DNA of 28,743 bases from IMG/VR virus record IMGVR_UViG_2711768054_000001, one strand, 5' to 3'. Positions 1 to 16,437 of this stretch are shown piece after piece. Each line of letters begins with the position of its first letter. Positions within the stretch are counted from its first letter, which is position 1. The DNA comes from a virus (lineage: Duplodnaviria; Heunggongvirae; Uroviricota; Caudoviricetes). The notes below the pieces were generated by a model. That model did not search any database, had not been told where the DNA came from, and saw only the letters and a program-made list of their open reading frames with translations. Made by a program: the position numbers and the translations under genes.

Positions 1-298
1 CTGTTCAGCAGATTATCAGGCGCAACTGAAGCGGCATAATCTGCGTGGAAGTATGAGCGCAAAAGGTTGCTGCTACGATAATGCCTGCGTGGAAAGCTTC
101 TTTCATTCGCTGAAAGTGGAATGTATCCATGGAGAACACTTTATCAGCCGGGAAATAATGCGGGCAACGGTGTTTAATTATATCGAATGTGATTACAATC
201 GGTGGCGGCGGCACAGTTGGTGTGGCGGCCTCAGTCCGGAACAATTTGAAAACAAGAACCTCGCTTAGGCCTGTGTCCATATTACGTGGGTAGGATCA
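1..298 (+). mobile_element. IS3-family insertion sequence, right end only (left part lies outside the window)
   Basis: Contains the 3-prime end of the transposase orfB (2-268); after the stop the sequence ...cctcgcttaggcctgtgtccatattacgtgggtaggatca ends at 298, matching the IS3 terminal inverted repeat as I remember it (TGATCCTACCCACGTAATATGGACACAGGCCTAAGCGAGG in reverse complement). Confidence 0.8.
2..268 (+). CDS. insF: IS3 transposase OrfB (InsF-like), C-terminal 88 codons, 5-prime partial at window edge
   Basis: Translation from position 2 gives [88 protein letters not shown], which I recognise as the C-terminus of E. coli IS3 InsF (DDE integrase-core end); stop TAG 266-268. Confidence 0.8.
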
Positions 299-419
299 CG
301 CAGGGGTCGGCCCATTTGAGCTTCAGATAGGAACGTTTGAATTCCTTTCACAAAATACATCACATACTGAACGTGAACATACCCACTTTGATCTTAAGGC
401 CAAAAAGTATGCAGGACTA

Positions 420-2138
420 ATGATTTTTAGGGATAGCTTGAGAGTATTTCCTTATGGTCGAGTAGATAATGATTTCTTCCAGATAGAAGAAAGACGTTCA
501 TGGAATGCAGGGCGATATTATTGGTCTAATAGAAGGATTTTTGGTTATATTGGAATTACTCAATCCAGTAATAAAGAGCTGAAAGATAAGTCGGGGAGAG
601 AGGGATTCATAAGAAACCAGGCTGCAAGAGAACTGAAAACTATTATATCTAATTTGTTAACTGAACTTGCTGATAGATTTTTTGGTTCACGTTCTGATGA
701 CCGTAAAGAGCTTTTAGAACAAGTTAAGCGTGAAAAAGAGTTAAGAAAATCTGCTCAACAACAAGCTCGAAAATCAACACAAAAAAGTTTTTCAGAAGCT
801 TTGAAGAATCAGACACCAGTTCTTGATGCTTCCTTGGAGGCTGTTAAAAGGCTGAAAACTAAGCTTGATAAAACTGATGGTTCGTTAGATTTAAACTATC
901 TTAAAATTATAGACAGTGATCTTACAAACTTAGATGCGTTGCGCAGTGAAATTAAAACGCCTATCAAACCTCCAAAACTTGGAATGTATGAAGAGAAATA
1001 TAGAGACTACAGAGATAAATTTAATGAGTTCTCTGCGTATATTCTACAAATGAAGTTAGCAATTAATAAACTTGATTCTGAATTAAATAAACTTGAGCCT
1101 TCATTGTCAGCGAAAAATCACCTTGAAAAAAATCAAGGTATTATTAATTCTAAACTAACTAAGTTTAATAACACGATAGAGGAGAAGATACATTCTCTTT
1201 TAAAAAAATGGGCCGATGAAATAAAGGTTGATCGAAGTGATTATTATGCTAAAACTATATCAGTTGTTGATTCAATAGATAATGATTCACAAATTGAAAA
1301 TGTGTTTAATTTGCTCGATAGTTTATATGTTGAGTCAGTTGATACCCTAACTTTCAAATATCAATCAATAATAAAAGGTCTCGATAGATTATTTGAAGGT
1401 ATAAACTTAGATTCAGCATTCTCATTATCTGAAGAAGAACGCTCATATTTTGAAGAAAAAGCTAAAAGTTTAAACGCGCTTGCACAGTTAGGTATTAGTG
1501 TTGAGATAATATCTCATGAACTTGAAGAAATGGATTCTATGGTAACCAGAGGACTAAACTCTCTTCCTACTTCTGTAAAAGAACACCCTGGTTTTTCATT
1601 GGCGTTAAATGCTCACAGATCGCTTACTCAACAAATACGTTTCTTATCACCTTTGAAAATATCAGGTTATCAATCCAGGCAGAGAATAACTGGAAAAAAT
1701 ATCATGGATTATGTCCTGAAGTTCTTTGGGGAGCGTTTCGAACGGCAACGAATAACTATTGAATTTAGTGAAGAGTTTAAGCAAATCGCAATAACAGATA
1801 TACCATCAAGGATCTATCCTGTTTTTACTAATATTATCAACAATGCAATGTATTGGGTCAGTCTGTCAAATAATAGGCTCATAAAGATTGGTTTTGTGAA
1901 TTCTTTGGTTATCATAGCAAATTCTGGTCCGGCAATTGATACCGATGATATCCCGCGACTATTTGAACTATTTTATAGCAAAAGAGCAAATGGACATGGG
2001 GTAGGTCTGTATCTATGTCGAGAAAACCTTGCTGTTGCACATCATAAAATATGGTATTCAGAACCTGATGAAGGCGATAACTATTTAATAAAAGATGGCG
2101 CTAATTTTGTGATCCAGTTCAATGGAGTGGAGTTCTAA
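420..2138 (+). CDS. Histidine-kinase-like ATPase (DHp + HATPase_c), apparently 5-prime truncated by the IS3 insertion
   Basis: ORF of 572 aa. Putative H-box ISVEIISHELEEMDSM, N-box NIINNAMYW and G-box GHGVGLYLCRENLA near the C-terminus; the N-terminal 330 aa are K/E-rich and look coiled-coil. The reading frame stays open upstream from 420 back to 294, right at the IS3 end, and there is no convincing RBS before the ATG at 420. GC content is visibly low. Confidence 0.55.
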   Translation: MIFRDSLRVFPYGRVDNDFFQIEERRSWNAGRYYWSNRRIFGYIGITQSSNKELKDKSGREGFIRNQAARELKTIISNLLTELADRFFGSRSDDRKELLEQVKREKELRKSAQQQARKSTQKSFSEALKNQTPVLDASLEAVKRLKTKLDKTDGSLDLNYLKIIDSDLTNLDALRSEIKTPIKPPKLGMYEEKYRDYRDKFNEFSAYILQMKLAINKLDSELNKLEPSLSAKNHLEKNQGIINSKLTKFNNTIEEKIHSLLKKWADEIKVDRSDYYAKTISVVDSIDNDSQIENVFNLLDSLYVESVDTLTFKYQSIIKGLDRLFEGINLDSAFSLSEEERSYFEEKAKSLNALAQLGISVEIISHELEEMDSMVTRGLNSLPTSVKEHPGFSLALNAHRSLTQQIRFLSPLKISGYQSRQRITGKNIMDYVLKFFGERFERQRITIEFSEEFKQIAITDIPSRIYPVFTNIINNAMYWVSLSNNRLIKIGFVNSLVIIANSGPAIDTDDIPRLFELFYSKRANGHGVGLYLCRENLAVAHHKIWYSEPDEGDNYLIKDGANFVIQFNGVEF

Positions 2139-2139
2139 T

Positions 2140-3888
2140 ATGACAGTGGCAAATTATAATTCTCTTGTCCAGAAAACTTTCTGCGAAAATGCAATTCGTT
2201 CCGTTGTCATGATTGATGACGATTTTCTGACGTATTCTGAATCAATCAGGGCGTTGAATAACGAAGTTGATTTAGACTACAACAAAATTGACTCATCTAA
2301 ACGAGCCGCTACTCTTGAGAGCTTTTTTCAATCTAAAAATATGATTTGTGATGTTGACAATGGTTCTGTTAATTTCGATGTGGATCGGATTAGAAAATCA
2401 GATCTTATTATTGTAGATTATCATCTTGATAATAATGCACCTGATAAAACACTTAAACTATTACAAGATTTGAAAGACTCCGATCATTTAAATATGGTTG
2501 TAATATATACTAGAGAGAATTTAGAAACGGTTTGGATGCAGATATCATCGACTCTCAAAGGTGCTCTGGATATCAACAGCTTGATCATTGACTACGATAA
2601 TGAAGATGTCCAAAGTTATTGGGAAGACGTTGTATTACCGAACTTAAATGATAATGGTAATAAAGCTCTCACAAGAGATGAAACAATAGCCTATATTAAA
2701 GACAGTAAGCCTTGTAGAAGAATTAAAAGATTAATACATGATGATGCTGTGTTGGAGGATCAAAAGGATAAAAACTTCATTGCAAAAATGATTGCAGAAT
2801 ATGCTGTGTCTAGAAATGCAATTATTTCTAGCAACACATCTGGCAATGTCATTCGGGGTGATGAAAGCGGAGTAAAATGGATTCAATGTGGTAATATCTT
2901 TGTCTCCCTATTTCATAAGGTTCAAGATGATCATGAAAACGATGGAGATAGGATTTGGCAAACTCTCAATGATTCTCTCATTGAATGGAAACCATCTTAT
3001 TATCAGTTAATAAAATCTGAAATTCAGAATGCAATCGAAGCTGAGGCTTTATCTTTTGTAAATCATTTGGCTAACGATCATTACGGTCAAGCTGCGTGGT
3101 TAAATGAGATATTAAAATCAGACTCGCCTGATATTAGATGTAGAAATATTGACTTTGTATTTGGTAATTTATCAGAAGAGCTTTATCAAAGACTTAAAAA
3201 TAATAATACGCTGGATGAATTTATCAAAAGTGTTTTTGATAGCTATTCAAATGAATACGCTAACAGCGGAGTTGCTGCATTGCTCCAATATTGCTCTTCA
3301 AAAATGGATCTGCCATCAAATAATGATACTTATCACGAAATGTATCATGCTTTAAATATGAATTTGTCTTCAAAGAATTTTGAAGATGGTCATATTTCTA
3401 CTGGCACTATTTTCTTTGATACAGAGTCGAACAAATGGTATTTATGTGTATCTGCGGCATGTGATTTGGTTCCTACTCAGGGTAACGACCCTCACCATGT
3501 AAGATTAAGTCCGCACAGGCTCATTAAAGTTCTGGAGCTTTTTAACGCCAGTCAGAGTAAAGCATTGCCATTTGCTGAACATTCGAAATATATATATGTA
3601 ATGCATAAAAATCAAAGAAAATATCTCTCTATTTTCGAAGGGGATAAAACGCTTCCTGTTGTTGATTATATGGTGGTGTTGAATCATGGAACAACAGTTG
3701 ATGGCGAAGAAAAAAATATTATTTCTGCCGTGTTTTTAAGTAATATGGATGGCAACGTGCAAAATGTTCCTGTCCGACTCAAACTTAAATCTCAACTGAG
3801 AACTGGTTATGCAGAAAGATATCAGGCTATAGCGTCTCAGTATAGCTCAAGGATTGGTGTGGATTATGTATCAATGATGCTACCATAA
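2140..3888 (+). CDS. Receiver (REC) domain protein with a ~450-aa C-terminal domain of unknown function
   Basis: N-terminus carries the response-regulator receiver signature: VVMIDDDF (acidic pair), LIIVDYHLD (putative phospho-acceptor Asp), MVVIYTRE (conserved Thr). RBS GGAGTGGAG at 2124-2132; ATG at 2140 lies one base after the upstream stop, suggesting translational coupling. AT-rich. No DNA-binding output domain recognisable. Confidence 0.6.
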   Translation: MTVANYNSLVQKTFCENAIRSVVMIDDDFLTYSESIRALNNEVDLDYNKIDSSKRAATLESFFQSKNMICDVDNGSVNFDVDRIRKSDLIIVDYHLDNNAPDKTLKLLQDLKDSDHLNMVVIYTRENLETVWMQISSTLKGALDINSLIIDYDNEDVQSYWEDVVLPNLNDNGNKALTRDETIAYIKDSKPCRRIKRLIHDDAVLEDQKDKNFIAKMIAEYAVSRNAIISSNTSGNVIRGDESGVKWIQCGNIFVSLFHKVQDDHENDGDRIWQTLNDSLIEWKPSYYQLIKSEIQNAIEAEALSFVNHLANDHYGQAAWLNEILKSDSPDIRCRNIDFVFGNLSEELYQRLKNNNTLDEFIKSVFDSYSNEYANSGVAALLQYCSSKMDLPSNNDTYHEMYHALNMNLSSKNFEDGHISTGTIFFDTESNKWYLCVSAACDLVPTQGNDPHHVRLSPHRLIKVLELFNASQSKALPFAEHSKYIYVMHKNQRKYLSIFEGDKTLPVVDYMVVLNHGTTVDGEEKNIISAVFLSNMDGNVQNVPVRLKLKSQLRTGYAERYQAIASQYSSRIGVDYVSMMLP

Positions 3889-3900
3889 TTATTATATTTT

Positions 3901-3929
3901 AGGCGTGGTGATTTTTTTTCGCCATGCCT
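3901..3929. terminator. Possible bidirectional terminator hairpin between convergent genes
   Basis: Imperfect inverted repeat aggcgtgg (3901-3908) / ccatgcct (3922-3929) flanking a T-run, located between the 3-prime ends of the receiver gene (+) and the membrane-protein gene (-). Confidence 0.35.
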
Positions 3930-3959
3930 ATTTTATATTTATCATCACAATGATGTTGT

Positions 3960-4376
3960 TTATTTTTGTTTAAGTCTTCTAAGCTTCATGCATTCTAATG
4001 AGAATAATAATAGAGTTGTGCTGTATATAAAGCCAGAGTTAGTTAATAACTTTAAATTTAATGCTTCAGGATTTTCACTGAGAAAGTGAAAGGCATAAAC
4101 TAAGTATACAGCTAAAGTAGCCGTTCCAATTGTTGGTCCAATATCGCCTTGATCATGAGGTTCAAGGTTTACATTGAACTTGAAGATTAGCCATTCAAAT
4201 CCCCAAGTAAAAAAAACAACTAATATCATGGCTGCGAATAATTTCGCGATGTTATCTGCTGATGGATTCATCAGAACAGATTGTTTCTGAAAAAATTCAC
4301 AAAGTGAGAGTCCGAAAAAAATAAAAAAAAGTGGTCTGGAACTAAATTTTTCAAAAACTTTGAATAGGGTTTCCAT
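3960..4376 (-). CDS. Small multi-pass membrane protein (138 aa), unknown function
   Basis: ATG at 4376 preceded on the minus strand by RBS AAGGTAAAG; translation shows about four hydrophobic helices (LFFIFFGLSL, AAMILVVFFTWGF, TATLAVYLVYAF, FIYSTTLLLF); AT-rich. Confidence 0.5.
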   Translation of the reverse strand: METLFKVFEKFSSRPLFFIFFGLSLCEFFQKQSVLMNPSADNIAKLFAAMILVVFFTWGFEWLIFKFNVNLEPHDQGDIGPTIGTATLAVYLVYAFHFLSENPEALNLKLLTNSGFIYSTTLLLFSLECMKLRRLKQK

Positions 4377-4414
4377 TTTCTTTACCTTCAGGATTATATT
4401 AGCTATTCTGATAC

Positions 4415-5644
4415 TTAGGCTACCAGAGCATTTGATCTTTGAGCTTGAACGTAATCACTCCACCATTGCATCAAACTCTGTCGCTCTATCAGATATTCTG
4501 CACGATTGTATGCTGCGATAATTTCATCTTTTTTCGAGTGGGCAAGCGCTGCCTCAAGAACTTCAGCTCTGAATTTACCAGACTCCTCTGCCGCTGTTCG
4601 TGCAATAGAACGCATACCGTGAGCTACAAGCTCGCCTCCGAACCCCATTCGGATGATAGCTGCGTTGGCTGTTTGTTCATGCATATGATTAAGAGGCGCT
4701 TTTATGCTGGGGAAAACCCATTCTCTATGCCCACTTATTGATTTCATTAATTCAAGGATGCGCAAAGCTTCTTTACTCAAAGGAACTTTGTGAAGCTTTT
4801 TCATTTTCATGAAATCAGCAGGAATGTTCCAAATGCTGTTGGTTGTATCAATATCAGACCACCTTGCGCGAACGGCTTCACCCGGACGAACCCATGTCAA
4901 CAATTGCCATTCAATTAGCATACGTGTTTCCAACCGGATTGACGCATTCGTCAAAGATTCCATAAACCTTGGCAATTCGCTTGGGGGAAGGGCAGGCATA
5001 TTTTGCTTTTTTGGTTTACTGAATCTTTGACCAAGGTTGTCAGCCGGGTTGAACTCAATAAGTTCTTCAGTAGCTGCCCACCGGAAGATTTCATTCAGAC
5101 GTGAAATGATACGGCGTAGAGTTTCCAATACGCCTCGTTGCTCAATAGGATCAAGGTGTTGTTTTAAGAGCTTAGGTCGGATCTCATTGATAGGGACATT
5201 ACCCAGACCGGGAAAGACATTTCTCTCTAAGCTGCGCCAGATGTCTGCTGCATGGTCTTGTGAGATACCTGATGTCTTTACCTTCTCATCTAACCATTTC
5301 CGCGCTACGGCTTGGAGAGTGTGCTCAGTAGCACTCTTTAATGCCTTCGCCTTATCGTTGTTATGGATTTGGGGATCAACACCATTTGCCAGAAAGGAGA
5401 GATATTCATCACGTAAGGCTCTGGCTCTTGCAAGGGTAAGGTGAGGATATGTCCCAAGGCTCATTTTGGTTCTTTTCTTGCTCACTGGTACTGCATACCT
5501 GAAATACCAATTTTTCTTGCCTCCTTTCGCCAAAGGAGCGATTCGTAGAATCAGACCATCACCGTCAAACAAGTTGATTTCTTTATCGGCTGGCTTGGTG
5601 CTTTTGATTTCAGTGTCAGTGAGCTTCTTAGCGATTTTTGCCAT
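4415..5644 (-). CDS. int: P4/CP4-57-family tyrosine integrase
   Basis: Translation MAKIAKKLTDTEIKSTKPADKEINLFDGDGLILRIAPLAKGGKKNWYFRY... has the typical P4-type integrase N-terminus, and the C-terminal half contains the R...H..R...Y catalytic region (HGMRSIARTAAEE, EAALAHS, Y in AAYNRAEY). I take the ATG at 5644 as the start; the ORF-track start at 5686 would add a GPK/GPT-repeat extension encoded by GGACCC DNA repeats. Confidence 0.85.
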   Translation of the reverse strand: MAKIAKKLTDTEIKSTKPADKEINLFDGDGLILRIAPLAKGGKKNWYFRYAVPVSKKRTKMSLGTYPHLTLARARALRDEYLSFLANGVDPQIHNNDKAKALKSATEHTLQAVARKWLDEKVKTSGISQDHAADIWRSLERNVFPGLGNVPINEIRPKLLKQHLDPIEQRGVLETLRRIISRLNEIFRWAATEELIEFNPADNLGQRFSKPKKQNMPALPPSELPRFMESLTNASIRLETRMLIEWQLLTWVRPGEAVRARWSDIDTTNSIWNIPADFMKMKKLHKVPLSKEALRILELMKSISGHREWVFPSIKAPLNHMHEQTANAAIIRMGFGGELVAHGMRSIARTAAEESGKFRAEVLEAALAHSKKDEIIAAYNRAEYLIERQSLMQWWSDYVQAQRSNALVA

Positions 5645-5809
5645 TTTGGGACCCTCGGTTTTTGGACCCTTCTTAGTGGGTCCCATTCAGGGTGCCATAA
5701 CTCGTAGTTCTCAGCAATTCTCACTGGACGACAATAGACGTAAAAAAGCCCGCAGAGCTTGTGCTGTGTGGGCTTAGTAGACTTCATTGAACTTCAAACA
5801 ACTAAAAAG

Positions 5810-5854
5810 TGGTGGAGCTGGCGGGAGTTGAACCCGCGTCCGAAATTCCTACAT
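5810..5854 (-). other. ssrA: 3-prime-terminal 45 nt of ssrA (tmRNA), an att-site copy, not a complete gene
   Basis: Reverse complement of 5810-5854 reads ATGTAGGAATTTCGGACGCGGGTTCAACTCCCGCCAGCTCCACCA, identical to the 3-prime end (T-arm plus acceptor CCA) of E. coli tmRNA as I recall it. Similarity stops abruptly at 5855; the upstream sequence is AT-rich and unrelated to ssrA. Confidence 0.8.
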
Positions 5855-5970
5855 ACCATTTTGACTATAATAAAAACATATATTTATGTTTTAAAACAGT
5901 ACGTTAGTGTTATTTTGTTTTTGTCGGTTTTACACATTTTTAATGCTCTGCCGCCAAGTTGTCGCCATTG

Positions 5971-6954
5971 CTAATTCCTATCAGCAGGTAGAATTGCTGG
6001 GTAGAGCTTAGAGCAATCATTGCCATAGTCAGGGATAAAGTCCCATAGCCCTTTTGGCGTTTGGAAGACCTCAGGGCTTAAGCCAATCAGCATATAAACA
6101 TGAACTAACAGCTCGCGCAATCCAGTGACCATTTGCTTTATTTGTTTTTCATCAGAGAAAGAAGTGGTGAAGGGTTTTTCTTCAATGGAGTCAAAAAGAA
6201 TAAACTCATGTTTTTCATATCGATAGTCGATCCCTAATTCTCTGCAAAGTTGGATAATATTGATTTCGAGCATTTGAAGGGAAATCACTTGGATATCATA
6301 AGAAGTCTCTTTGTTGTAACAGCTTTTAATAGCTTTGTTGATATTCTTATAATAATCTTGAACTCTACCCATAAATAATGAACTTATTTCTTTGCTATAG
6401 CCTTCTTCAATAGAGGATTTTGTAAAAATATTCATGTAAAGAATATAAGGGTGAGAAATGGAAAGTTCTATATATTTTTTTCCATCATCGTGTTCGGTAA
6501 ACTCTCTACTAACGATAAATGAAGGGACGGTTTTAAAAATATCGGCATAACTCTTCTGGTGGGCATAAAATGAATCAGATTTATTTTTTGCTTTTACCAG
6601 CTCTATTTGATGCTCTGTCCTTGAAAGCTGCGTCTCTGTTTGAATGGTCCTGTGAATATTCTTAACTATAGCTCCAAGAGGTACTGAACTGGCTAGCAGC
6701 ATTAGAGGGAATTTACTGATTTCGTAAAAGCGAGTATAGCCGTGGGCACTTAACACCGGGACCTTGCCCCACCATGCGAAAATCCCAAAATAAAAGAATG
6801 ATAATACTGGTATTCCGATTGATAACCAGAATAATTTCTGTTTTATAAGGTTTTGTTCATTTAATAAATACCACTTGTATTTATATGTTAAATACAATAT
6901 GTATATTAACATTACAACATAGAACATAATGCCAATTGATGAATAAAGGGTCAT
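5971..6954 (-). CDS. Membrane protein of unknown function (327 aa); AT-rich cargo gene downstream of the P2-type integrase
   Basis: N-terminal hydrophobic helices (IGIMFYVVMLIYILYL, LFWLSIGIPVLSFFYFGIFAWWG, LMLLASSVPLGAIV) followed by a ~220-aa soluble domain. The start ATG (6954-6952, minus strand) overlaps the int stop (6953-6951) as ATGA. GC content is clearly lower than the flanking phage genes. Confidence 0.6.
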   Translation of the reverse strand: MTLYSSIGIMFYVVMLIYILYLTYKYKWYLLNEQNLIKQKLFWLSIGIPVLSFFYFGIFAWWGKVPVLSAHGYTRFYEISKFPLMLLASSVPLGAIVKNIHRTIQTETQLSRTEHQIELVKAKNKSDSFYAHQKSYADIFKTVPSFIVSREFTEHDDGKKYIELSISHPYILYMNIFTKSSIEEGYSKEISSLFMGRVQDYYKNINKAIKSCYNKETSYDIQVISLQMLEINIIQLCRELGIDYRYEKHEFILFDSIEEKPFTTSFSDEKQIKQMVTGLRELLVHVYMLIGLSPEVFQTPKGLWDFIPDYGNDCSKLYPAILPADRN

Positions 6955-7979
6955 GCTTTTTTCCAGTCTAATTTGTAAAGTGGATTTTTTGTTACAGCAT
7001 CTTCCAAGTGATCAGGGGCAAAGTGAGCGTAAACCATCGTCATTTTTATATCAGCATGGCCCAGAATATCGCGCAGTACCAGTATATTTCCGCCGTTCAT
7101 CATAAAATGGCTGGCGAATGTATGGCGCAGTACGTGGGTGCACTGGCCCTCTGGCAGTTCGATACCGGCTCGCTTTACTGCACGCTCAAAGGATTTTCTG
7201 CATGGGGTAAATAATCTCCCCCTGTTTTTAGGTAGTTCGTCATACAGTTCTTGAGATATTGGAACGGTTCGGTTTTTTTTACCTTTGGTCTTGGTATAAG
7301 TAATGCGATATTTTGATAACTGATGCCCTTGCAGGTTTTCTGCTTCACTCCATCGGGCACCAGTTGCTAGGCATATTTTTGCAATCATCAACAGACTGGG
7401 ACTCTGAGAATCAGCACAGGCATCCAGTAGGCGTTTAATTTCTTCCGGGGTCAGGAATGCTAGTTCACCCTCAGCGATTTTAAATGTTGGCAGCCCGACG
7501 AGAGGATTTGGTGCTGACCAGTGGCCTAGTTTTTTCAATGTGCCGAAAACCGATGATAGGTTACGTTGCTCAAGATTCACCGTGCGTGGTTTTACTGGCG
7601 ACATTAGTGTGCCGTCTTCGTTACGAAGGTCACCTTTTAACCGTGCTTCGCGGTATTTCGTAAAGTCTCCGGCTGTCAGTTCTGAGGCGATGGGGTCGCC
7701 TAGACCATTACAGATAATTCTAAGTTTCGCCATGAGGCGCTTGGGGTCTGCGAGTGTCTGACCATACAGGGAATACCAAAGCTCAATTAACTCTGATAGG
7801 CGTCGCCGATCATCCTTTTCACCCAACCACGGTTTTTTATTCACTTCTTCCATTGTGAAGCTTTCAAACGCAATGGCTTCGCCTTTCGTGGCAAATTGCT
7901 TACGCACGCGCTTGCCATTGCGTCCATTGGGATAGCACTCACACAACCATTTTCCGTTCGGCTGTTTTCTGATGGTCAT
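6951..7979 (-). CDS. int: P2-type tyrosine integrase
   Basis: 342 aa, MTIRKQPNGKWLCECYPNGRNGKRVRKQFATKGEAIAFE...; C-terminus has ARWSE...HVLRHTFASHFMMNGGNILVLRDILGHADIKMTMVYAH (R-H-R-Y motifs). Size and sequence resemble P2/186 Int. Confidence 0.9.
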   Translation of the reverse strand: MTIRKQPNGKWLCECYPNGRNGKRVRKQFATKGEAIAFESFTMEEVNKKPWLGEKDDRRRLSELIELWYSLYGQTLADPKRLMAKLRIICNGLGDPIASELTAGDFTKYREARLKGDLRNEDGTLMSPVKPRTVNLEQRNLSSVFGTLKKLGHWSAPNPLVGLPTFKIAEGELAFLTPEEIKRLLDACADSQSPSLLMIAKICLATGARWSEAENLQGHQLSKYRITYTKTKGKKNRTVPISQELYDELPKNRGRLFTPCRKSFERAVKRAGIELPEGQCTHVLRHTFASHFMMNGGNILVLRDILGHADIKMTMVYAHFAPDHLEDAVTKNPLYKLDWKKA

Positions 7980-7980: not shown

Positions 7981-8613
7981 TCAAAGGCTCTTAATGATTT
8001 TCAGTGCGCGGCCTACTACCTCAATGTCATCCAGGCCGCACTCAAACGATGAATCATCCTGATGCACTACTAATTTGTTTCCCGGGAGTCGAGTCAATTT
8101 AACAATGCTTTTTATCCCGTCGATATCGACTAACCACATACCATTTACTAGTGGTGTTTGGTTGCGATCTATTAAATAAGAATCACCAGAAGTAGTTACC
8201 AGCAGTAGGTTGCTTGAGTTTGAGGGGAGTATGCTGCTATCAATGATTGCTTTTCCAGCATCGATCAATAAACCACCGTTGAGAGTCGCCTTGTCAATTT
8301 CAGGAGATACTAGTTCAGAAAGAGGTATAACCTTGCTGGAGTTCACGGAATTGATATTTTTTTTGGGTTCAATGTTTGAACCTGGCTCCCCCTGTCCGGT
8401 GGTTAGCCACAGTAAAGAAACTCCTGTTTCCAAGGCGCACTGAATCACCCACTCTGCAGGAAAACTATCTCTTAAGTATCTGTTTGCCATGGTACTTTTT
8501 GATGCGCCTAAGTGATCGCAAAGTTGCTGTCTGGACTTGAAATCATAGGCTGCCATTAGTCTATGGATAGCCTCTCTTCCCCCTGTATTCTCTCCAGCCT
8601 TTACCTGTATCAT
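7981..8613 (-). CDS. CI-like immunity repressor (HTH N-terminal domain), 186-type
   Basis: 210 aa; divergent from the early operon and adjacent to int; N-terminal helix-turn-helix region (SKSTMANRYLRDSFPAEWVIQCALETGVSLLWLTTGQG); no obvious LexA-like Ser-Lys autocleavage motif. Confidence 0.7.
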   Translation of the reverse strand: MIQVKAGENTGGREAIHRLMAAYDFKSRQQLCDHLGASKSTMANRYLRDSFPAEWVIQCALETGVSLLWLTTGQGEPGSNIEPKKNINSVNSSKVIPLSELVSPEIDKATLNGGLLIDAGKAIIDSSILPSNSSNLLLVTTSGDSYLIDRNQTPLVNGMWLVDIDGIKSIVKLTRLPGNKLVVHQDDSSFECGLDDIEVVGRALKIIKSL

Positions 8614-9916: not shown

Positions 9917-9938
9917 TTGCGTTTTGGGGATATGAATT

Positions 9939-10280: not shown

Positions 10281-10347
10281 CCAACTAATGAAATTAATGG
10301 CGTAAACCCGCCGGGTATCCCTTTATCTAAATTCAGGAGAATTGATT

Positions 10348-10581: not shown

Positions 10582-10808
10582 TGGCTGATGCAATGGATCT
10601 CGTACAGCAGCGCGTTGAAGAAGAACGCCAGCGCCATATCCGTGCTGCCCGTGCCAAAACGCCGGGCGTGTCCCGCGTGCTTTGTATTGAGTGTGAAGCG
10701 CCAATTCCGCCAGCACGCCGCCGCGCCATTCCAGGTGTGCAGCTTTGCATTACCTGTCAGGAAATCGCAGAGCTGAAAGGCAAACATTACAACGGAGGTG
10801 CTGTATGA
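10581..10808 (+). CDS. TraR/DksA-family C4 zinc-finger protein
   Basis: 75 aa with CIECEAPIPPARRRAIPGVQLCITCQ, a C-x2-C...C-x2-C zinc finger typical of phage TraR/DksA-like proteins. Confidence 0.75.
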   Translation: MADAMDLVQQRVEEERQRHIRAARAKTPGVSRVLCIECEAPIPPARRRAIPGVQLCITCQEIAELKGKHYNGGAV

Positions 10809-11662
10809 GCACCATCCTGAAATGGGCGGGAAATAAAACCGCCATTATGTCCGAACTGAAAAAGCATCTTCCTGCTGGCCCGCGACTGGTTGAACCTTTC
10901 GCGGGTTCCTGTGCAGTGATGATGGAGACGGAGTACCCCAGCTATCTTGTTGCGGATATTAATCCTGATTTAATCAACCTCTATAAAAAGGTTGCTGCTG
11001 ATTGTGAATCATTTATATCTCGCGCCAGAGTTTTATTTGAGATCGCAAACAGGGAGGTAGCTTATTACAACATAAGGCAGGAGTTTAATTACTCAACTGA
11101 AATTACTGATTTCATGAAAGCGGTATATTTCCTGTATCTCAATCGTCACGGTTACCGTGGTTTATGTCGCTATAACAAGAGCGGGCATTTCAACATTCCC
11201 TACGGTAATTATAAAAATCCGTATTTCCCTGAAAAAGAAATTCGCGCATTTGCAGAAAAAGCCCAGCGAGCAACGTTTATCTGCGCCAGCTTTGATGAAA
11301 CGCTGGCGATGTTGAAGGCGGGGGATGTGGTGTATTGCGATCCGCCGTATGACGGTACGTTTTCCGGCTATCACACTGATGGTTTCACTGAAGATGACCA
11401 GTATCACCTGGCATCCGTTCTTGAACATCGGTCATCAGAAGGACATCCGGTCATTGTTTCTAACAGTGACACATCCCTGATCCGTTCGCTGTATCGCAAT
11501 TTTACTCACCACTATATCAAGGTAAAACGCAGCATCGGTGTGGCAGCTGGCGAGGGTAAATCAGCAACAGAAATCATTGCTGTTTCCGGGCCGCGCTGCT
11601 GGTTGGGATTTGATTATTCGCGTGGCGTGGATAGTTCTGCCGTGTACGGAGTGCGTGCATGA
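10805..11662 (+). CDS. dam: DNA adenine (N6) methyltransferase, Dam-like
   Basis: Motif I PFAGSCAV and catalytic DPPY ([12 protein letters not shown]); ATGA overlap with the upstream stop; RBS GGAGGTG. Confidence 0.85.
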
Positions 11663-14073
11663 GCCATGCTGATATGAACAACTGCAGCGGCTTTAACGAG
11701 GCCGCCGCAGCATTCTCATGGAACAGCCCGAAAAAGGCTATTAACCCTTATCTGGACCCGGCGGAAGTTGCGCCGGTTTCTGCGCTTTCAAACCTGATCA
11801 CTCTGTACGCTGCCGATAACGAGCAGGAACAACTGCGCCGCGAGGCACTGAGTGATCAGGTCTGGGAGCGTTATTTCTTTAATGAATCCCGTGATCCTGT
11901 CCAACGCGAAATGGAGCAGGATAAGCTCATTAGCCGGGCAAAGCTGGCGCATGAGCAGCAGCGTTTTAATCCGGACATGGTCATACTGGCGGACGTTAAA
12001 GCCCAGCCCTCCCATATCAGCAAGCCGCTGATGCAACGTATTGAATACTTCAGCAGCCTGGGCAGGCCAAAGGCTTATTCCCGCTATTTGCGTGAGACGA
12101 TTAAGCCATGTCTGGAACGACTGGAGCATGTACGCGACAGTCAGCTATCCACTTCTTTTCGCTTTATGGCAAGCCATGAAGGGCTGGACGGCCTGCTGAT
12201 CCTGCCTGAAATGAGTCAGGATCAGGTGAAACGCCTGTCTACTCTTGTCGCTGCGCATATGAGCATGTGTCTTGATGCCGCTTGTGGTGATTTGTACGCC
12301 ACCGATGATGTTAAGCCAGAAGAAATCCGCAAGACATGGGAAAAGGTGGCAGCAGAAACCCTGCGACTGGATGTCATACCGCCTGCGTTTGAGCAACTCC
12401 GCCGGAAAAGAAACCGCCGTAAACCCGTACCCTATGAACTCATTCCGGGTTCGCTGGCGCGTATGTTGTGCGCCGACTGGTGGTATCGGAAATTATGGAA
12501 GATGCGTTGCGAATGGCGGGAAGAGCAGTTGCGTGCTGTTTGCCTGGTCAGCAAAAAAGCATCTCCCTATGTCAGCTATGAAGCCGTGATGCATAAACGT
12601 GAGCAGCGCCGTAAGTCGCTGGAGTTTTTCCGTTCTCATGAACTGGTGAACGAAGACGGCGATACGCTGGATATGGAGGACGTGGTAAACGCCAGTAGTA
12701 GCAACCCGGCGCATCGCCGCAATGAGATGATGGCATGTGTTAAAGGTCTGGAGCTTATCGCGGAAATGCGCGGTGACTGCGCCGTTTTCTACACCATCAC
12801 CTGTCCGTCACGTTTCCATTCCACGCTAAATAACGGCAGGCCCAACCCAACCTGGACAAATGCGACGGTAAGACAAAGCAGTGATTATCTGGTCGGCATG
12901 TTTGCTGCATTTCGTAAGGCGATGTACAAAGCCGGATTGCGCTGGTATGGCGTGCGGGTGGCTGAGCCGCATCATGACGGTACAGTTCACTGGCACCTGT
13001 TGTGTTTTATGCGCAAAAAAGATCGCCGCGCCATTACTGCTTTGTTGCGTAAGTTTGCCATTCGTGAAGACCGCGAGGAGCTGGGTAATAACACAGGACC
13101 ACGCTTTAAGTCTGAGCTGATAAACCCGCGCAAAGGTACGCCAACAAGCTACATCGCGAAATACATCAGTAAGAACATTGACGGGCGTGGTCTGGCTGGC
13201 GAGATCAGCAAGGAAACGGGTAAATCCCTGCGTGATAACGCTGAATACGTTAATGCCTGGGCGTCTCTTCATCGTGTTCAGCAATTCCGCTTCTTTGGCA
13301 TTCCGGGGCGTCAGGCTTACCGTGAACTGCGATTGCTGGCTGGTCAGGCGGCAAGGCAACAGGGGGACAAAAAAGCAGGTGCGGCGGTACTGGATAACCC
13401 GCGCATTGATGCCATCCTGGCTGCTGCTGATGCTGGTTGTTTTGCCACCTACATCATGAAGCAGGGCGGCGTACTGGTTCCCCGCAAATATCACCTCATC
13501 AGAACCGCTTATGAAATCAACGAAGAGCCGACCGCCTATGGCGATCACGGCATTCGTATTTATGGCATCTGGTCACCCATTGCAGAGGGCAAGATCTGCA
13601 CTCATGCAGTGAAGTGGAAAATGGTTCGTAAGGCCGTTGACGTTCAGGAGGCGGCAGCCGACCAGGGCGCTTGCGCCCCTTGGACTCGTGGCAATAACTG
13701 TCCCCTTGCTGAAAATTTGAACCAACAGGAGAAAGATAAATCAGCTGATGGGGACCCCAGAACGGACATTACCAGCATGGATGACAAGGAGTTGCACGAT
13801 TACCTGCACAGTATGAGCAAAAAAGAGCGCCGGGAACTGGCAGCAAGGTTACGCCTGGTGAAACCGAAACGGCGTAAAGACTACAAACAGCGAATTACAG
13901 ACCATCAGCGACTGCAGCTCGTGTATGAGCTGAAGTCCAGAGGATTTGATGGCAGCGAGAAAGAGGTCGATTTACTCCTTCGCGGAGGCAGTATTCCGTC
14001 AGGAGCAGGCCTGCGTATCTTCTATCGGAACCAGCGTTTGCAGGAAGATGATCAGTGGCGGAACCTGTATTAA
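11659..14073 (+). CDS. A: Replication initiation endonuclease (P2 gpA-like rolling-circle initiator)
   Basis: 804 aa; HUH-type motif TVHWHLLCF and tyrosine motif [12 protein letters not shown]; size and position match P2/186 gene A. Confidence 0.9.
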
Positions 14074-14165
14074 TTACGCGGGTTAACAATTCGTGCTCTT
14101 AATAATACCAGGCATATCAGGCTGATGAACGTAAAAAATCGTTTTACATCAGTAAGATTATTATA

Positions 14166-14185
14166 TACTGTAAATATAAACAGTG
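14166..14185. promoter_or_regulatory. LexA (SOS) box
   Basis: TACTGTAAATATAAACAGTG fits the CTGT-N8-ACAG consensus; overlaps a -10-like TATACT (14164-14169), with a -35-like TTTACA at 14143-14148. Confidence 0.6.
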
Positions 14186-14226
14186 GTTATGCATACAGCA
14201 TTGCGTGTGGTGTCATAGGAGGAAAG

Positions 14227-14415
14227 ATGCAGGACTATTTTTTGGAGTCTTTGAAGCTCCAGCGCATTGATTTTTTTCTTAAGCTTGTAGCGGCTAGTGA
14301 GTGTAGTGATGAAGAGAAGGGGCTGGCTCTGCAGTGGGTTTCTGAATTGACTGATGAACTCATGGCAAAAATCAGAACCCACGAATACAACCGCTCAATG
14401 GATGTCATCAGCTGA
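14227..14415 (+). CDS. Small protein (62 aa), first gene of the putative SOS-controlled operon (possible antirepressor N-terminal part)
   Basis: RBS AGGAGG immediately upstream of the ATG at 14227; about 40 bp downstream of the LexA box. Confidence 0.45.
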   Translation: MQDYFLESLKLQRIDFFLKLVAASECSDEEKGLALQWVSELTDELMAKIRTHEYNRSMDVIS

Positions 14416-14425
14416 GGTGACTTTT

Positions 14426-14659
14426 ATGCGCATTGAAATAATGATCGATAAAGAGCAGAAGATTAGCCAGTCTACCCTGGACGCCCTTGAATCCGAGCTT
14501 TACCGCAATCTGCGCCCCCTGTATCCCAAAACGGTAATTCGCATTCGCAAAGGTAGCTCTAACGGTGTGGAACTAACCGGACTGCAACTGGACGAAGAAA
14601 GAAAACAAGTGATGAAAATTATGCAGAAGGTGTGGGAAGACGACAGCTGGCTGCATTAA
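14426..14659 (+). CDS. DinI-family protein (Tum-like C-terminal module)
   Basis: 77 aa, MRIEIMIDKEQKISQSTLDALESELYRNLRPLYPKTVIRIRKGSSNGVELTGLQLDEERKQVMKIMQKVWEDDSWLH, resembles E. coli DinI in length and profile (MRIEV..., acidic C-terminus ending W-x-x-D-D-W); RBS GAGGTG. Confidence 0.75.
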   Translation: MRIEIMIDKEQKISQSTLDALESELYRNLRPLYPKTVIRIRKGSSNGVELTGLQLDEERKQVMKIMQKVWEDDSWLH

Positions 14660-14794
14660 GAAACGTTGCTGGCGTCTGAACTTGCTTCTGGCGTCAGCAA
14701 GGTTGAACAACGAGCCCTTGCGAGGCGTTAGCTCTGTAGTGCATGTCTATGCCGCATGAGATCGCATGATCGTTTGAGGATCGTTTTTGCTAAG

Positions 14795-14819
14795 GCCCGC
14801 CAGAACTGGCGGGCTTTTG
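14795..14819 (+). terminator. Rho-independent terminator
   Basis: Perfect 9-bp stem gcccgccag / ctggcgggc with a 2-nt loop, followed by TTTTG. Confidence 0.55.
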
Positions 14820-14863
14820 CGTAGATCATGCAGGTGCATGAAAACCACTACATAAAGCGGGCA

Positions 14864-14882
14864 GGCGTGGCGGGGATACGAG
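14864..14882. other. Candidate cos (cohesive end) site of the P2/186-like phage
   Basis: GGCGTGGCGGGGATACGAG matches 14 of 19 positions of the P2 cohesive end GGCGAGGCGGGGAAAGCAC, and the first 13 nt match the 186 cos as I recall it; it lies between the replication/tum region and the portal gene, where cos is expected. Confidence 0.45.
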
Positions 14883-14980
14883 CGCGCGTATTTGGTCGTT
14901 ACTTAGCTTTTTTTTATCAATAGATTAAGCTAACTTAAGTCTTTTTAGGAAAAAATATTTTTTCGTGATGAGGTAGAAAG

Positions 14981-16390
14981 ATGTCTTTTCTTGATATAAA
15001 AAAAATGAGTAAAGAGAGGTTTAATGCTTTTGTTGATTGGACCAGAATGCCAAATACTGAACTTTTAGGCTATGAGTTTGAGTGGTACTGTAGTCCGAGA
15101 GAGTTCCTGCTAGGGGCACTATTATTGGATCAAATCGATGAAGATTATAGCGGTATTGTTTTAGCAAGAGACTTAAGTGGGAGATATAGATGTATTGACC
15201 TATTTACTAGTGTTTCAGAAATGAATTCTGCACGAGCAAAACTAAAGAAATTAATGCGGAAGCATACTAAATTAAACGTAAAAGTATTTCCACAAGGTGA
15301 TGAAACTTATAAAGCAATGGATTTATTCACACCTATAGTTACACCAGATAAACTTCATCATCATTTTTCATTATTTGGTAAATACGCGAACTGGTCGCCT
15401 GCAACAGGGATAATCAAGGAAATGATGAATCATTTTGAGGATGTCGACGGGAATTTTATAGAGCAGTTTCAGACAACAGGTTTTGATGCCCGGCTATGGG
15501 AGTTATATCTTTTCGCATATTTACGAGAGGAACACTTTTGGCTAGATAGGCAGTTTAATGCTCCTGATTATGTGGCACGTAAGTATGGTAATACTATTTG
15601 CATTGAAGCTGTAACGGTTAATCCAACAGGGAATGATATTAATCAATCATCTGAAATGCTATCTGAACCTAAAAGTAAGGAAGAATTGCTAGAGAAAATA
15701 GAGAATTATATGCCGATTAAATTTGGAAGTTCTCTCTATTCTAAACTGAAAAAGAAAACTCGATACTGGGATCTAGAACATGTTAAGGGGAATCCTTTAA
15801 TTTTCGCAATTGCTGATTTTCATGAACCAAACTCTATGATTTGGTCCCATAGTGCACTTTGGCAGTATCTTTATGGTATTCGCTATGAGCATGTTAAATC
15901 TGAAGATGGATGTTACAGTTTAGCAACTAAGAAAATTATATCGCATCAATTTGAGAAAAAGGAAATTCCTTCAGGCTTTTTCTTCTTGGATGAGTCTGAA
16001 AATATTTCGGCCGTCCTTAGTTCTAATAGTGGTACTATATCGAAGTTTAATCGGATGGGAAAACTGGCTGGTTTTGGAAGAAGTGACCTTAGATTATTTA
16101 GGAGTGGTTACTGCCATGATCATGACCCAGAGGCATTATATCCAGCAGCATTTAGTTTTGAAGTGAAAGAAGGCGATATTACAGAAACATGGGCAGAAGG
16201 TTTAAATATGTATCATAATCCTAATGCTAAATATCCTGTAGATCCTGATTTATTTCCTTCAATAGCACATCATTTTCTTGAAAATGGAGAGGTTAAAAGT
16301 ATAGTGCCTGACTTTCATCCGTATACATCTATTACCATAAATGTCTTAACTCAAAATAATAAAAAACAAAAAATCAGAGTAGATGAGTAA
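14981..16390 (+). CDS. Hypothetical protein (469 aa), AT-rich cargo gene between the candidate cos site and the portal gene
   Basis: Long ORF with RBS GAGG upstream; GC content much lower than the flanking phage genes; no motif I can assign (no Walker A, no clear nuclease signature); no TM segments apparent. Confidence 0.7.
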   Translation: MSFLDIKKMSKERFNAFVDWTRMPNTELLGYEFEWYCSPREFLLGALLLDQIDEDYSGIVLARDLSGRYRCIDLFTSVSEMNSARAKLKKLMRKHTKLNVKVFPQGDETYKAMDLFTPIVTPDKLHHHFSLFGKYANWSPATGIIKEMMNHFEDVDGNFIEQFQTTGFDARLWELYLFAYLREEHFWLDRQFNAPDYVARKYGNTICIEAVTVNPTGNDINQSSEMLSEPKSKEELLEKIENYMPIKFGSSLYSKLKKKTRYWDLEHVKGNPLIFAIADFHEPNSMIWSHSALWQYLYGIRYEHVKSEDGCYSLATKKIISHQFEKKEIPSGFFFLDESENISAVLSSNSGTISKFNRMGKLAGFGRSDLRLFRSGYCHDHDPEALYPAAFSFEVKEGDITETWAEGLNMYHNPNAKYPVDPDLFPSIAHHFLENGEVKSIVPDFHPYTSITINVLTQNNKKQKIRVDE

Positions 16391-16410
16391 TTAATTAGGT
16401 TTATTCTTGT

Positions 16411-16433
16411 TAACCACCTCATAGAGGTGGTTA
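16411..16433. terminator. Bidirectional hairpin terminator between convergent genes
   Basis: Perfect inverted repeat taaccacctc - ata - gaggtggtta between the stop of the 469-aa gene (+) and the stop of portal Q (-). Confidence 0.5.
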
Positions 16434-16437
16434 TTAA

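Follow-up and report, generated by a model that had tools for sequence, protein, structure and literature searches.

The window, that is, the whole stretch of 28,743 nucleotides analyzed here, is the ssrA (tmRNA) integration site of the E. coli chromosome with two unrelated mobile elements in tandem, and its three AT-rich blocks (islands 1, 2, and 3) are accessory genes of these two ssrA elements. Island 1 forms the integrase-proximal end of an integrative mobilizable element that is AT-rich and has a CP4-57-type integrase, and islands 2 and 3 are morons of a 186-like P2-family prophage, which is integrated in ssrA beside the island 1 remnant. We consider this account as a whole, including the locus, the remnant, the two morons, and the exchange of cargo, to be the best explanation of the window, with a probability of about 0.8. 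The general pattern of AT-rich cargo in prophage hotspots is already published (Rousset et al., 2022, PMC9122126; Vassallo et al., 2022, PMC9519451; PMC13586616). The sole new lead, and the sole block worth testing, is the gene family of island 2 (phrog_17460).

Table 1. Features of the window, with positions counted from its first nucleotide
Feature	Position	Strand	Basis or remark
IS3 right end; transposase C-terminal ORF at 53-268	1-293	+	Pfam rve_2, rve_3
HK', 5'-truncated paraMORC-type histidine kinase (island 1)	294-2138	+	Pfam HEF_HK, HATPase_c
Receiver-domain protein (RR), 582 aa (island 1)	2140-3888	+	Response_reg_2, then a conserved C-terminal domain of ~440 aa and unassigned fold
orf138, small predicted membrane protein	3960-4376	-	Kept beside the integrase in related islands
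Tyrosine integrase of CP4-57 (IntA) type, from the island linked to ssrA; P4 integrase class	4415-5686	-	Pfam Arm-DNA-bind_3, Phage_int_M, Phage_integrase
Hairpin resembling a terminator, downstream of the 3' fragment of ssrA	5746-5760	-	Pattern scan
ssrA (tmRNA) 3' end, 44 bp; att core, left boundary of the P2-family prophage	5810-5853	-	Direct reading
attP arm of the prophage, AT-rich, kept with or without cargo	5854-5969	-	Alignment to empty-slot relative
ORF327 (island 2), phrog_17460 family	5971-6954	-	Insert relative to empty-slot relative
186/P2-type integrase	6951-7979	-	Pfam Int_N, Phage_integrase
186-type CI repressor, first in the cI-int-ORF327 gene string	7981-8613	-	Pfam Phage_CI_repr, Phage_CI_C
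GpA replication endonuclease, left anchor of the cos/portal hotspot	11659-14073	+	Phage_GPA, E 4e-127
cos-like site GGCGTGGCGGGGATACGAGCGCGCG; left edge of island 3 directly after	14864-14890	+	Pattern match
PD-T7-1 (island 3), single-gene anti-phage system	14981-16390	+	PADLOC; phrog_8571
GpQ portal protein, right anchor; last ~25 codons (16438-16513) in the swapped segment	16438-17475	-	Phage_portal

Two elements in tandem at ssrA

The chromosomal neighborhood of the window is ygaQ'/glaH-gab of E. coli. No whole ssrA gene was found in the window by ARAGORN or Rfam; the att core is the 3' end of the gene, the same core precedes the full ssrA in Salmonella, and in strain SCU-106, which has a different left flank, identity to the window begins exactly at 5810. 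The adjoining attP arm aligns at 94% with an empty-slot relative as far as 5969. Terminator-like hairpins were no more numerous in a pattern scan than expected by chance, and the one at 5746-5760 is listed in Table 1 for its position only.

The right-hand element carries Phage_portal, Terminase_5, Terminase_6N, Terminase_6C, Phage_GPO, Phage_cap_P2, Phage_term_smal, Phage_GPA, Int_N, and Phage_integrase domains, as P2-like phages do with their GpQ-L morphogenesis genes, GpA, and integrase, and Phage_CI_repr, Phage_CI_C, Phage_CP76 (CII), and Phage_186_Fil mark it as a member of the 186-like subgroup. The boundaries of islands 2 and 3 were refined against a relative in which both prophage slots are empty. 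The swapped segment of island 3 extends from 14891, just after the cos-like site, to ~16513 in the 3' end of the portal gene. We take the cos-like site to resemble the cos sequences of 186 and P2. It has three mismatches (0.07 such sites expected by chance) and is kept in the empty-slot relative, where homology stops at 14890.

Judging from a full-length, single-gene PADLOC match (E 1.3e-196, profile positions 2-449 of 452), island 3 is PD-T7-1, an already validated family of defense genes, in the classic cos/portal hotspot, and no difference was detected from the PD-T7-1 described in P2-family prophages (Vassallo et al., 2022). The ECOR46 and NILS69 genes of this family protect against T7 and T-even phages (PMC9519451, PMC12409345), and PD-T7-1 has weak nuclease matches in HHpred and a weakly predicted PD-(D/E)xK nuclease core. 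The replication-gene/cos/portal slot named in the original prediction is indeed the known GpA-GpQ hotspot of P2-family prophages (Rousset et al., 2022; Vassallo et al., 2022), since the locus lies between the replication gene, DinI, and cos on one side and the portal gene on the other and is a swappable locus of 1-5 kb holding a validated system. Its content varies among relatives: PD-T7-1 occupies the slot in the window, in H1, and in S88, and of the six other relatives, H4 carries ietAS, four carry other genes, and H7 has an empty slot. Our analysis found no essential difference from the published hotspot and adds the detail that the swap begins after cos and takes the last ~25 portal codons; the ~25 C-terminal residues of the portal protein are identical in two PD-T7-1 carriers and different in relatives with other cargo.

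Across related genomes, each of the three blocks occurs independently of the other two. Comparison of the same slots, which had been proposed as a check, showed that each of them is empty or holds different cargo in sibling prophages, and acquisition was therefore independent, as had been supposed for the three accessory loci. In each prophage slot, one cargo would replace another through recombination within the 3' end of the adjoining core gene, integrase or portal.

The left-hand element is of a different kind. Its tyrosine integrase, of the P4 class, is 100% identical to a gene that record LN997803 labels "Prophage CP4-57 integrase" and <60% identical to other records of the phage collection, except two CP4-57-type matches at 90-95%. 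Integrase type and chromosomal site are those of CP4-57 and of the "remnant integrative element" at E. coli ssrA, and the island 1 remnant also flanks Stx phages integrated at ssrA (annotation of LN997803 and AJ304858). The intact Salmonella island, located at a full ssrA, has the order integrase, orf138, receiver-effector, paraMORC-histidine kinase, C5 cytosine methylase, and relaxase module, and thus adds the methylase, the relaxase, a NikA-like protein, and two further recombinases. Because the intact element has a relaxase, we regard it as a mobilizable island and not as a phage satellite. The island 1 cargo differs from that of K-12 CP4-57. The orf138 gene, which had no match in Pfam or PADLOC, lies beside the integrase in the intact Salmonella island and, at ~94% DNA identity, in an O157 island with different other cargo; it belongs to the backbone of the island, traveling with the integrase, and is not swappable cargo.

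The original prediction had placed island 1 in the integrase-proximal slot of a P4-family island. The integrase-psu hotspot of P4-like satellites (Rousset et al., 2022) does share with island 1 the integrase class and the variable AT-rich cargo alongside, whereas psu, delta, sid, alpA, and alpha primase were found neither in the window nor in the intact relative L007. That the window holds three independently acquired loci in a P4-satellite hotspot, a P2-like int/att junction, and a cos/portal slot, all of them good new candidates, is therefore doubtful as a whole, even though the composition, the two prophage slots, and the independent assortment were all confirmed, the integrase is of the P4 class, and another E. 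coli lineage has different cargo beside it. The P4-satellite part is refuted by the lack of P4 core genes and by the relaxase, NikA-like protein, and extra recombinases of the intact relative, so that the P4-likeness is limited to the class of the integrase. As for the priority given to all three blocks for functional testing, it holds for island 2 and lapses for island 1, a truncated remnant with no complete copy in complete E. coli genomes, and for island 3, since PD-T7-1 has already been tested.

ORF327 and its family

Island 2 is an insert from 5970 to ~6950 with exactly one CDS, and 5854-5969 is not cargo. It lies where it had been placed originally, at the int/att junction of the P2-like prophage, and strain SCU-106 shows that this is the phage side of the att core. 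What lies from the stop codon of the P2-type integrase to the att core moves with the phage, varies among relatives, and includes known defense systems: in siblings, the slot is empty or carries GAPS1, a dCTP deaminase (PADLOC E 2e-146), or other genes, and across species it carries a type III-A retron, PDC-S15, PDC-S49, HEC-04, and Old-like and TIR-like proteins. A P2 integrase-att defense hotspot with 3% of P2 defense systems is reported in a 2026 NAR article (PMC13586616), and island 2 is like it both in position and in the dCTP deaminase, GAPS1, retron, and other systems of its siblings; the difference is that its own occupant, ORF327, is not a recognized defense system. In the 186-like lineage that targets ssrA, the slot very often holds one hypervariable family with a start codon overlapping the integrase stop, which is not described in the passages of that article consulted here.

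The only family match of ORF327 was phrog_17460, annotated "unknown function." PADLOC gave no match for ORF327 and two stray single-member matches among 43 relatives, and no match was found in Pfam, in the PDB by sequence or fold, or in BFVD. At its N-terminus, the protein has two to three transmembrane helices; these are accompanied by a long helix with the near-invariant stretch H101-R-T-I-Q-T-E107 (I104 and E107 being less conserved), and a hypervariable C-terminal domain (AlphaFold model, pLDDT 84). The family forms 967 clusters at 50% identity, and its mean pairwise identity is 0.56 in N-terminal residues 36-134 vs. 0.22 in the C-terminus. In 72 out of 78 viral contigs, a family gene comes immediately after the integrase gene, a proportion that may be inflated because the sample was drawn with two short motif patterns from one phage lineage. 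Among the viral loci, the median pairwise identity is 92.6% for the integrases and 36.9% for the ORF327-family products, which form 32 clusters at 70% identity vs. 3 for the integrases. Some members have other locations, either near the portal side in a P2-like phage or standing alone in a Pectobacterium chromosome. Rather than a one-off foreign insert, island 2 represents one allele of a gene family that is hypervariable and habitually found at this position.

The ATG of ORF327 overlaps the integrase stop codon by 4 bp (ATGA), and because of this overlap ORF327 is probably made in lysogens from the cI-int transcript, the overlap being the one indication of co-transcription; promoter and terminator scans did no better than chance. 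Position, diversity pattern, and architecture together suggest a putative role in defense. We infer, with a confidence a little short of even, that ORF327 is a prophage-encoded anti-phage protein with a membrane effector at its N-terminus and recognition at its C-terminus, acting by membrane damage or exclusion. The conserved membrane N-terminus with its H-R-T-x-Q-T motif would be the effector, the hypervariable cytoplasmic C-terminus would determine which invader is recognized, and activation would either compromise the membrane (abortive infection) or exclude the incoming phage. More tentatively still, the family may be a new single-protein anti-phage system of temperate phages, in which an effector of two to three helices is combined with C-terminal target specificity and with translation coupled to that of the integrase. 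If so, every lysogen of a widespread 186-like lineage would make ORF327 through this coupling, and allele replacement between prophages that are otherwise ~93% identical would be the mark of an arms race against other phages.

A membrane protein encoded in a lysogenic gene string beside the integrase might instead serve superinfection exclusion or lysogenic conversion, blocking DNA entry of related phages or altering the envelope with neither cytoplasmic sensing nor abortion. Exclusion proteins such as lactococcal Sie2009 and HK97 gp15 occupy similar positions, and extreme diversity between near-identical backbones is expected of competition among related phages. We think this unlikely, since by the positive-inside rule the large variable domain would be cytoplasmic and the periplasmic loops short, and ORF327 has no similarity to Gtr or O-antigen-modifying families. 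Less likely again is a gene with no role against other phages, which either serves the prophage (e.g., in membrane-linked control of induction or lysis) or persists as a selfish passenger that evolves fast. The lack of defense-family matches and the nearly constant tie of the family to one prophage lineage speak for it; against it, ORF327 is evidently dispensable for the phage, because prophages with similar backbones have the slot empty or filled with unrelated known defense genes, and the family has further members in the other P2 hotspot and one standing alone in a chromosome.

The kinase and receiver genes of island 1

The end of IS3 meets the kinase gene at 293-298, which corresponds to kinase residue 376 of 988, and a complete IS3 is annotated at the same place in relatives; DNA identity to the Salmonella island is 99.4-99.6%. 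The HK' frame is open from 294, the RefSeq CDS being 572 aa from an internal ATG at 420. HK' keeps HEF_HK (DHp, motif SHELEEM) and HATPase_c and lacks the N-terminal HATPase_c_3 that its full-length homologs (988 aa, 99% identical) have in addition. Its stop and the receiver start are 1 nt apart (2138/2140), and the pair retains the phospho-acceptor His of the DHp domain, the catalytic domain, and the Asp residues of the receiver.

Most of the island 1 block is found in 560 of 5426 complete E. coli genomes, in copies at least 99% identical, and the E. coli matches, among those listed, begin at the first base of the block or a few bases from it. The methylase and the kinase N-terminus are absent from all complete E. 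coli genomes searched. An IS3-associated event in E. coli removed everything beyond kinase residue 376, including the methylase and the first 375 kinase residues.

Two-component-like pairs with HEF_HK and Response_reg_2 have been linked to C5 methylases and paraMORC ATPases (Bellieny-Rabelo et al., 2021; PMC8011034). Island 1 resembles them in having HEF_HK plus HATPase_c and Response_reg_2 in adjacent genes, with the same methylase in its intact relatives, and differs in that the window has neither the HATPase_c_3 (paraMORC) half of the kinase nor a neighboring C5 methylase, both having been deleted. The kinase fragment and receiver are probably a non-functional remnant of a methylase-linked, phosphorelay-controlled candidate conflict system, and in its truncated form island 1 is a poor target for functional testing. 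That the pair still works, for instance as a sensor-less, constitutively active kinase driving the effector, would be in keeping with the two intact ORFs in 560 genomes and with the retained His, catalytic domain, and Asp residues; we hold it to be improbable, because intact frames across copies at least 99% identical say little about selection, and the native promoter, methylase, and paraMORC domain are all gone.

Composition of the islands

The three AT-rich stretches that had been singled out are real. Computed per block, GC is 0.339 (294-4400), 0.345 (5855-6954), and 0.348 (14981-16437) vs. 0.525 in the remainder of the window. The sliding-window GC calculation suggested at the outset gave z = -5.2, -3.8, and -4.5 for islands 1, 2, and 3 against all windows of equal length outside the islands, the lowest of which (0.459, 0.419, and 0.442, respectively) never reached the island values. 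The cargo genes have the lowest GC3 of all genes (HK' 0.246, RR 0.282, orf138 0.266, ORF327 0.360, and PD-T7-1 0.260), every other gene lying at 0.41-0.71.

It is very improbable that the low GC stems from mutational bias or from what the sequence does locally, as in att arms and regulatory DNA, and not from horizontally exchanged cargo, for although the attP arm is AT-rich without being cargo and the intact island 1 element is AT-rich throughout (backbone genes GC 0.25-0.45), the low GC is mainly at third codon positions of long ORFs, and relatives with conserved flanks (81-98% identical) have unrelated genes or nothing at the same coordinates, slot comparisons that rule it out for islands 2 and 3.

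Reference parts of the window have GC of 0.450 (CP4-57-type integrase), 0.467 (P2-type integrase), 0.483 (P2 early region), and 0.561 (P2 late region). The E. coli genome has a GC of ~0.51, and the prophage genes fall on either side of it. The view that all other prophage genes are host-like in composition holds roughly and fails if taken strictly, with early and regulatory genes at 0.44-0.49 and late genes at 0.50-0.61.

Composition and arrangement of the array at ssrA

A 500-bp sliding profile recovered the three AT-rich stretches of the original prediction as troughs at ~250-4500, 6000-7000, and 15000-16750, with a GC content of 0.29-0.38, while the GC content was 0.45-0.47 in the two integrases, 0.483 in the P2 early region, and 0.561 in the late genes. 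GC3 was 0.25-0.36 in the five trough genes vs 0.41-0.71 in every other gene of the window. Compared with all equal-length windows outside the islands, islands 1, 2, and 3 gave z = -5.2, -3.8, and -4.5, respectively, and no such window within the stretch had a GC content as low as the islands. The accompanying claim that all other prophage genes are host-like in composition holds only approximately (early genes, GC 0.44-0.49; late genes, 0.50-0.61).

The first 8.7 kb of the window is 97-99.9% identical to Escherichia coli chromosomes, and the locus adjoins the ygaQ pseudogene and glaH-lhgO-gabDTP. Reading of the sequence revealed the 3' end of ssrA, the tmRNA gene, on the minus strand (...GGGTTCAACTCCCGCCAGCTCCACCA), followed by a terminator-like hairpin. 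Because ARAGORN and Rfam (gathering thresholds), which gave no tRNA or RNA family match in the window, find no complete gene, this 44-bp fragment is an att duplicate. The minus-strand order of the prophage is late genes, portal, cargo, cos, GpA, early genes, cI, int, and cargo; beyond this P2-family prophage lie the attP arm with the ssrA core, a second integrase with its own cargo, and IS3. The elements thus stand in tandem at the tmRNA gene.

Coordinates of features in the window and in related loci
Feature	Record	Position	Remark
IS3 copy	window	1-293	window opens inside it
IS3 right end/kinase codon 376	window	294-298	
Island 1	window	294-4400	GC 0.339
Island 1 first ORF (kinase)	window		HEF_HK + HATPase_c (Pfam)
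Island 1 second ORF (receiver)	window		Response_reg_2 (Pfam)
Receiver residues ~145-582	window	2140-3888	C-terminal two-thirds
Receiver gene, last ~100 bp	window	3784-3888	
Island 1 integrase	window	4415-5686	P4/CP4-57-class (Pfam)
ssrA 3' end	window	5810-5853 (-)	
Second AT-rich block	window	5855-6954	GC 0.345
ORF327	window	5971-6954 (-)	
Prophage integrase, last 6-10 codons	window	6951-~6980	
dam end; GpA start	window	11662; 11659	no PAPS_reduct gene between
Third AT-rich block	window	14981-16437	GC 0.348
Portal, last ~25 codons	window	16438-16513	
Morphogenesis/baseplate V junction	window	~25188-25257	68 bp
Intact methylase-kinase-receiver operon, Salmonella	L007	8833-14717	
DUF6119 gene 3' end, O157 493/89	L097	9001-9186	
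DUF4760 membrane protein, O157 493/89	L097	11148-12071	integrase-att gene of lambdoid/Stx prophage at ssrA
302-aa hypothetical gene, phi467	L098	31797-32705	integrase-att gene at ssrA
AIPR-family (Abi-like) gene, S88	L099	21362-23062	
PAPS_reduct-domain gene	L011 and L013	291-1301	between dam methylase and GpA
Slots without annotated genes, E. coli UTAK-18	L005	15144-15472 and 22932-23316	integrase-att and cos/portal
~400-424-aa occupant	L017	7022-8293	integrase-att
~400-424-aa occupant	L006	16427-17638	integrase-att
~400-424-aa occupant, S88	L099	1809-3032	integrase-att

The truncated kinase-receiver locus of island 1

The first block had been taken for cargo of a P4-family island, and this is the wrong element. 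Its kinase frame extends without a stop past the annotated ATG, as far back as 294, at the IS3 end. Kinase homologues of 99% identity in Salmonella, Klebsiella, and Serratia have 988 aa, residue 376 of which corresponds to the start of the window gene, and possess one more domain, HATPase_c_3, at the N-terminus. In the intact Salmonella locus, placed at a complete ssrA and adjoining bapA, the integrase is followed by orf138, the receiver protein, the 988-aa kinase, and a C5 cytosine methylase, and beyond some small ORFs come a NikA-like protein, a relaxase, and more recombinases. The locus is AT-rich throughout (GC 0.25-0.45), and none of psu, delta, sid, and alpha is present in it. With this gene content, the element is therefore an integrative mobilisable element and not a P4 satellite.

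Most of the 4.1-kb block is found at ≥99% identity in 560 of 5426 complete E. coli genomes, and among the matches listed it starts at the first base after IS3 or a few bases off; the methylase and the kinase N-terminus were found in none of the 5426. Only orf138 and the integrase are kept in 24 genomes, with different cargo adjoining, and the cargo beside these genes in O157 493/89 comprises DUF6119, Hxs genes, and an ABC three-component system. The Stx phage phi467 is flanked by the same remnant, and a 92%-identical integrase region in a second phage record is annotated as "remnant integrative element." The E. coli copy thus appears to be a decayed remnant. In relatives, the other side of the IS3 that meets the kinase gene adjoins the ygaQ (alpha-amylase) pseudogene, suggesting that a single IS3-associated deletion took the rest of the island plus part of ygaQ. 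The end of the receiver gene is also ~94% identical to the 3' end of the unrelated O157 DUF6119 gene, which occupies the same place, suggesting a recombination joint beside orf138 common to both.

The kinase-receiver-methylase module has been described as a predicted two-component-like system with links to restriction-modification and paraMORC ATPases (PMC8011034). The C-terminal two-thirds of the receiver protein, conserved to ~20% identity with W247, K260, W283, N406, C441, R571, G573, and D575 invariant, matched no known family or solved structure and is presumed to be the effector of the module. As a second and separate candidate, the intact Salmonella version (methylase, paraMORC-kinase, and receiver-effector) may be a restriction-like system under phosphorelay control.

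Two variable slots of the P2-family prophage

The third block (island 3, 14891-16513) was correctly placed at the replication-gene/cos/portal slot. Homology with an empty-slot sibling prophage extends to 14890, directly past the cos-like GGCGTGGCGGGGATACGAGCGCGCG, and resumes at ~16514, within the portal gene; this slot is the published GpA-GpQ hotspot (PMC9122126, PMC9519451). Its 469-aa ORF is PD-T7-1 (PADLOC, E 1.3e-196, whole profile covered), which was selected and validated as protective against T7, with stronger protection from T-even phages (PMC9519451), and which is active against a Teseptimavirus (PMC12409345). HHpred gives its sole domain hint, a weak PD-(D/E)xK match (to Hjc, 80% probability), and searches of PDB sequences with PD-T7-1, the receiver protein, and ORF327, as single sequences and as profiles, gave no match below E = 0.1. 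Sibling prophages carry other cargo here, namely ietAS (PADLOC E 7e-84 and 2e-48), a TIGR04255 + XRE + hypothetical gene set, a DUF4145 set, a HIRAN pair, a P-loop NTPase, or nothing.

The second block likewise lies at the int/att junction of the P2-like prophage, as predicted. Homology with an empty-slot relative covers the ssrA core and attP arm, stops at 5969, and returns at the integrase 3' end, so that the insert (island 2, 5970-6950) is exactly one CDS, ORF327, whose ATG overlaps the integrase stop codon (ATGA). ORF327 belongs to the prophage, because in strain SCU-106, which is without island 1, identity to the window holds from 5810 rightwards across the core, arm, and ORF327, while the left flank is different. 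Siblings have in this slot an anti-phage dCTP deaminase (PADLOC E 2e-146), GAPS1 (validated in bioRxiv 10.1101/2023.03.28.534373), two hypothetical genes, another ORF327 family member, or nothing. About one-third of 80 other-species loci with a related integrase have AT-rich genes directly after it, and 38 such proteins fall into 35 sequence clusters; occupants include a type III-A retron, PDC-S15, PDC-S49, HEC-04, and Old-like, TIR-like, and PD-T7-3-like proteins. In lambdoid/Stx prophages integrated at this ssrA site, too, a gene lies between integrase and att, and therefore the slot here serves phage families that are unrelated to one another.

The two PD-T7-1 carriers (the window and E. 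coli S88) share the same last ~25 portal residues, which are different in relatives with other cargo. The 3' ends of both portal and integrase genes co-vary with the neighbouring cargo, and therefore cargo swaps bring core-gene 3' ends along; the exchange would proceed by recombination within these ends.

Some further positions also vary. In the S88 sibling, with the same PD-T7-1, an AIPR-family gene separates the virion-morphogenesis gene from baseplate V. The dam-GpA interval, within the integrase-primase interval, is another variable position, occupied by a PAPS_reduct-domain gene in some siblings. The integrase-att and cos/portal slots both lack annotated genes in the UTAK-18 sibling; PMC13586616 states that empty main hotspots were never seen in P2.

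The ORF327 family and its possible role

The original prediction was a correct description of a known phenomenon apart from the element of island 1, and since defence cargo of AT-rich composition is already well known from fixed slots of prophages and islands, no picture is changed. As priorities for functional testing, the three loci are not equal: island 1 was overestimated, being an apparently dead remnant, and island 3 is already characterised, while island 2, intact and of unknown function, merits experiments. The practical value is this triage.

ORF327 matches phrog_17460 (unknown function) and has no Pfam match, no PADLOC match, and no solved relative. A word-index search gave 64 relatives, all enterobacterial and hypothetical, and a profile run against 1.84 billion representative proteins gave 967 family clusters at E ≤ 1e-3. 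The conserved part, residues 36-134, takes in two transmembrane helices and extends into a long helix, with L36, Q39, P49, G57, W61, H101, R102, T103, Q105, T106, Q109, K123, D127, H132, and K134 among the conserved residues; the C-terminal ~190 residues show no conservation across the family (mean pairwise identity 0.56 vs 0.22). The AlphaFold model (pLDDT 84) places helices at 4-25 and 40-61 ahead of a 72-residue helix (70-141), after which comes a mixed alpha/beta domain, predicted to be cytoplasmic by the positive-inside rule; fold searches with ORF327 were uninformative. A weak CBASS "2TM effector" lead from a 309-aa member in the relative H9 (PADLOC E 8e-5) was reproduced by none of 43 family members and was dropped, and kinship to the DUF4760 protein that follows a lambdoid integrase at this site in O157 was rejected (family profile E 5.6).

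A 186-type integrase directly precedes the family member, called X in the string cI-int-X, in 72 of 78 viral contigs carrying one, and X mostly starts -15 to +3 nt from the integrase stop (68 such loci). Median pairwise identity is 92.6% for the integrases vs 36.9% for X, which form 3 and 32 clusters, respectively, at 70% identity, and X is AT-rich in every case (mean GC 0.323 vs 0.475 for the integrase). As exceptions, P2-like phages have two copies at the portal side, and a Pectobacterium chromosome carries one by itself. The window allele of ORF327 occurs in 7 of the 5426 complete E. coli genomes, PD-T7-1 at its window slot in 25, and both in 3 only.

Judging from its overlap with the integrase gene, ORF327 would be made in lysogens from the cI-int message; counts from promoter and terminator scans around ORF327 and PD-T7-1 were not above those of shuffled controls and are therefore not used as evidence for transcription. 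In this large family, three features are suggestive, i.e., the fixed post-integrase position, an identity of ~37% vs ~93% for the integrase, and the pairing of a conserved membrane half with a hypervariable one. We tentatively favour, at a probability of about 35-40%, an action of ORF327 against other phages, in which the conserved membrane half would be the effector and the variable cytoplasmic half the specificity determinant. Exclusion at the level of the periplasm or membrane is less likely, and a protein without any anti-phage role is somewhat more doubtful still. If ORF327 is a defence or exclusion protein, it would represent a common, previously unrecognised system in enterobacterial prophages, and its alleles would be a natural domain-swapped set for studying the evolution of specificity.

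A second recurrent occupant of the integrase-att slot is a protein of ~400-424 aa, seemingly common to Citrobacter and E. coli prophages including that of S88, as judged by eye. It had no PADLOC match in the scanned copies (L017 and L006) and is a further uncharacterised candidate in this slot.
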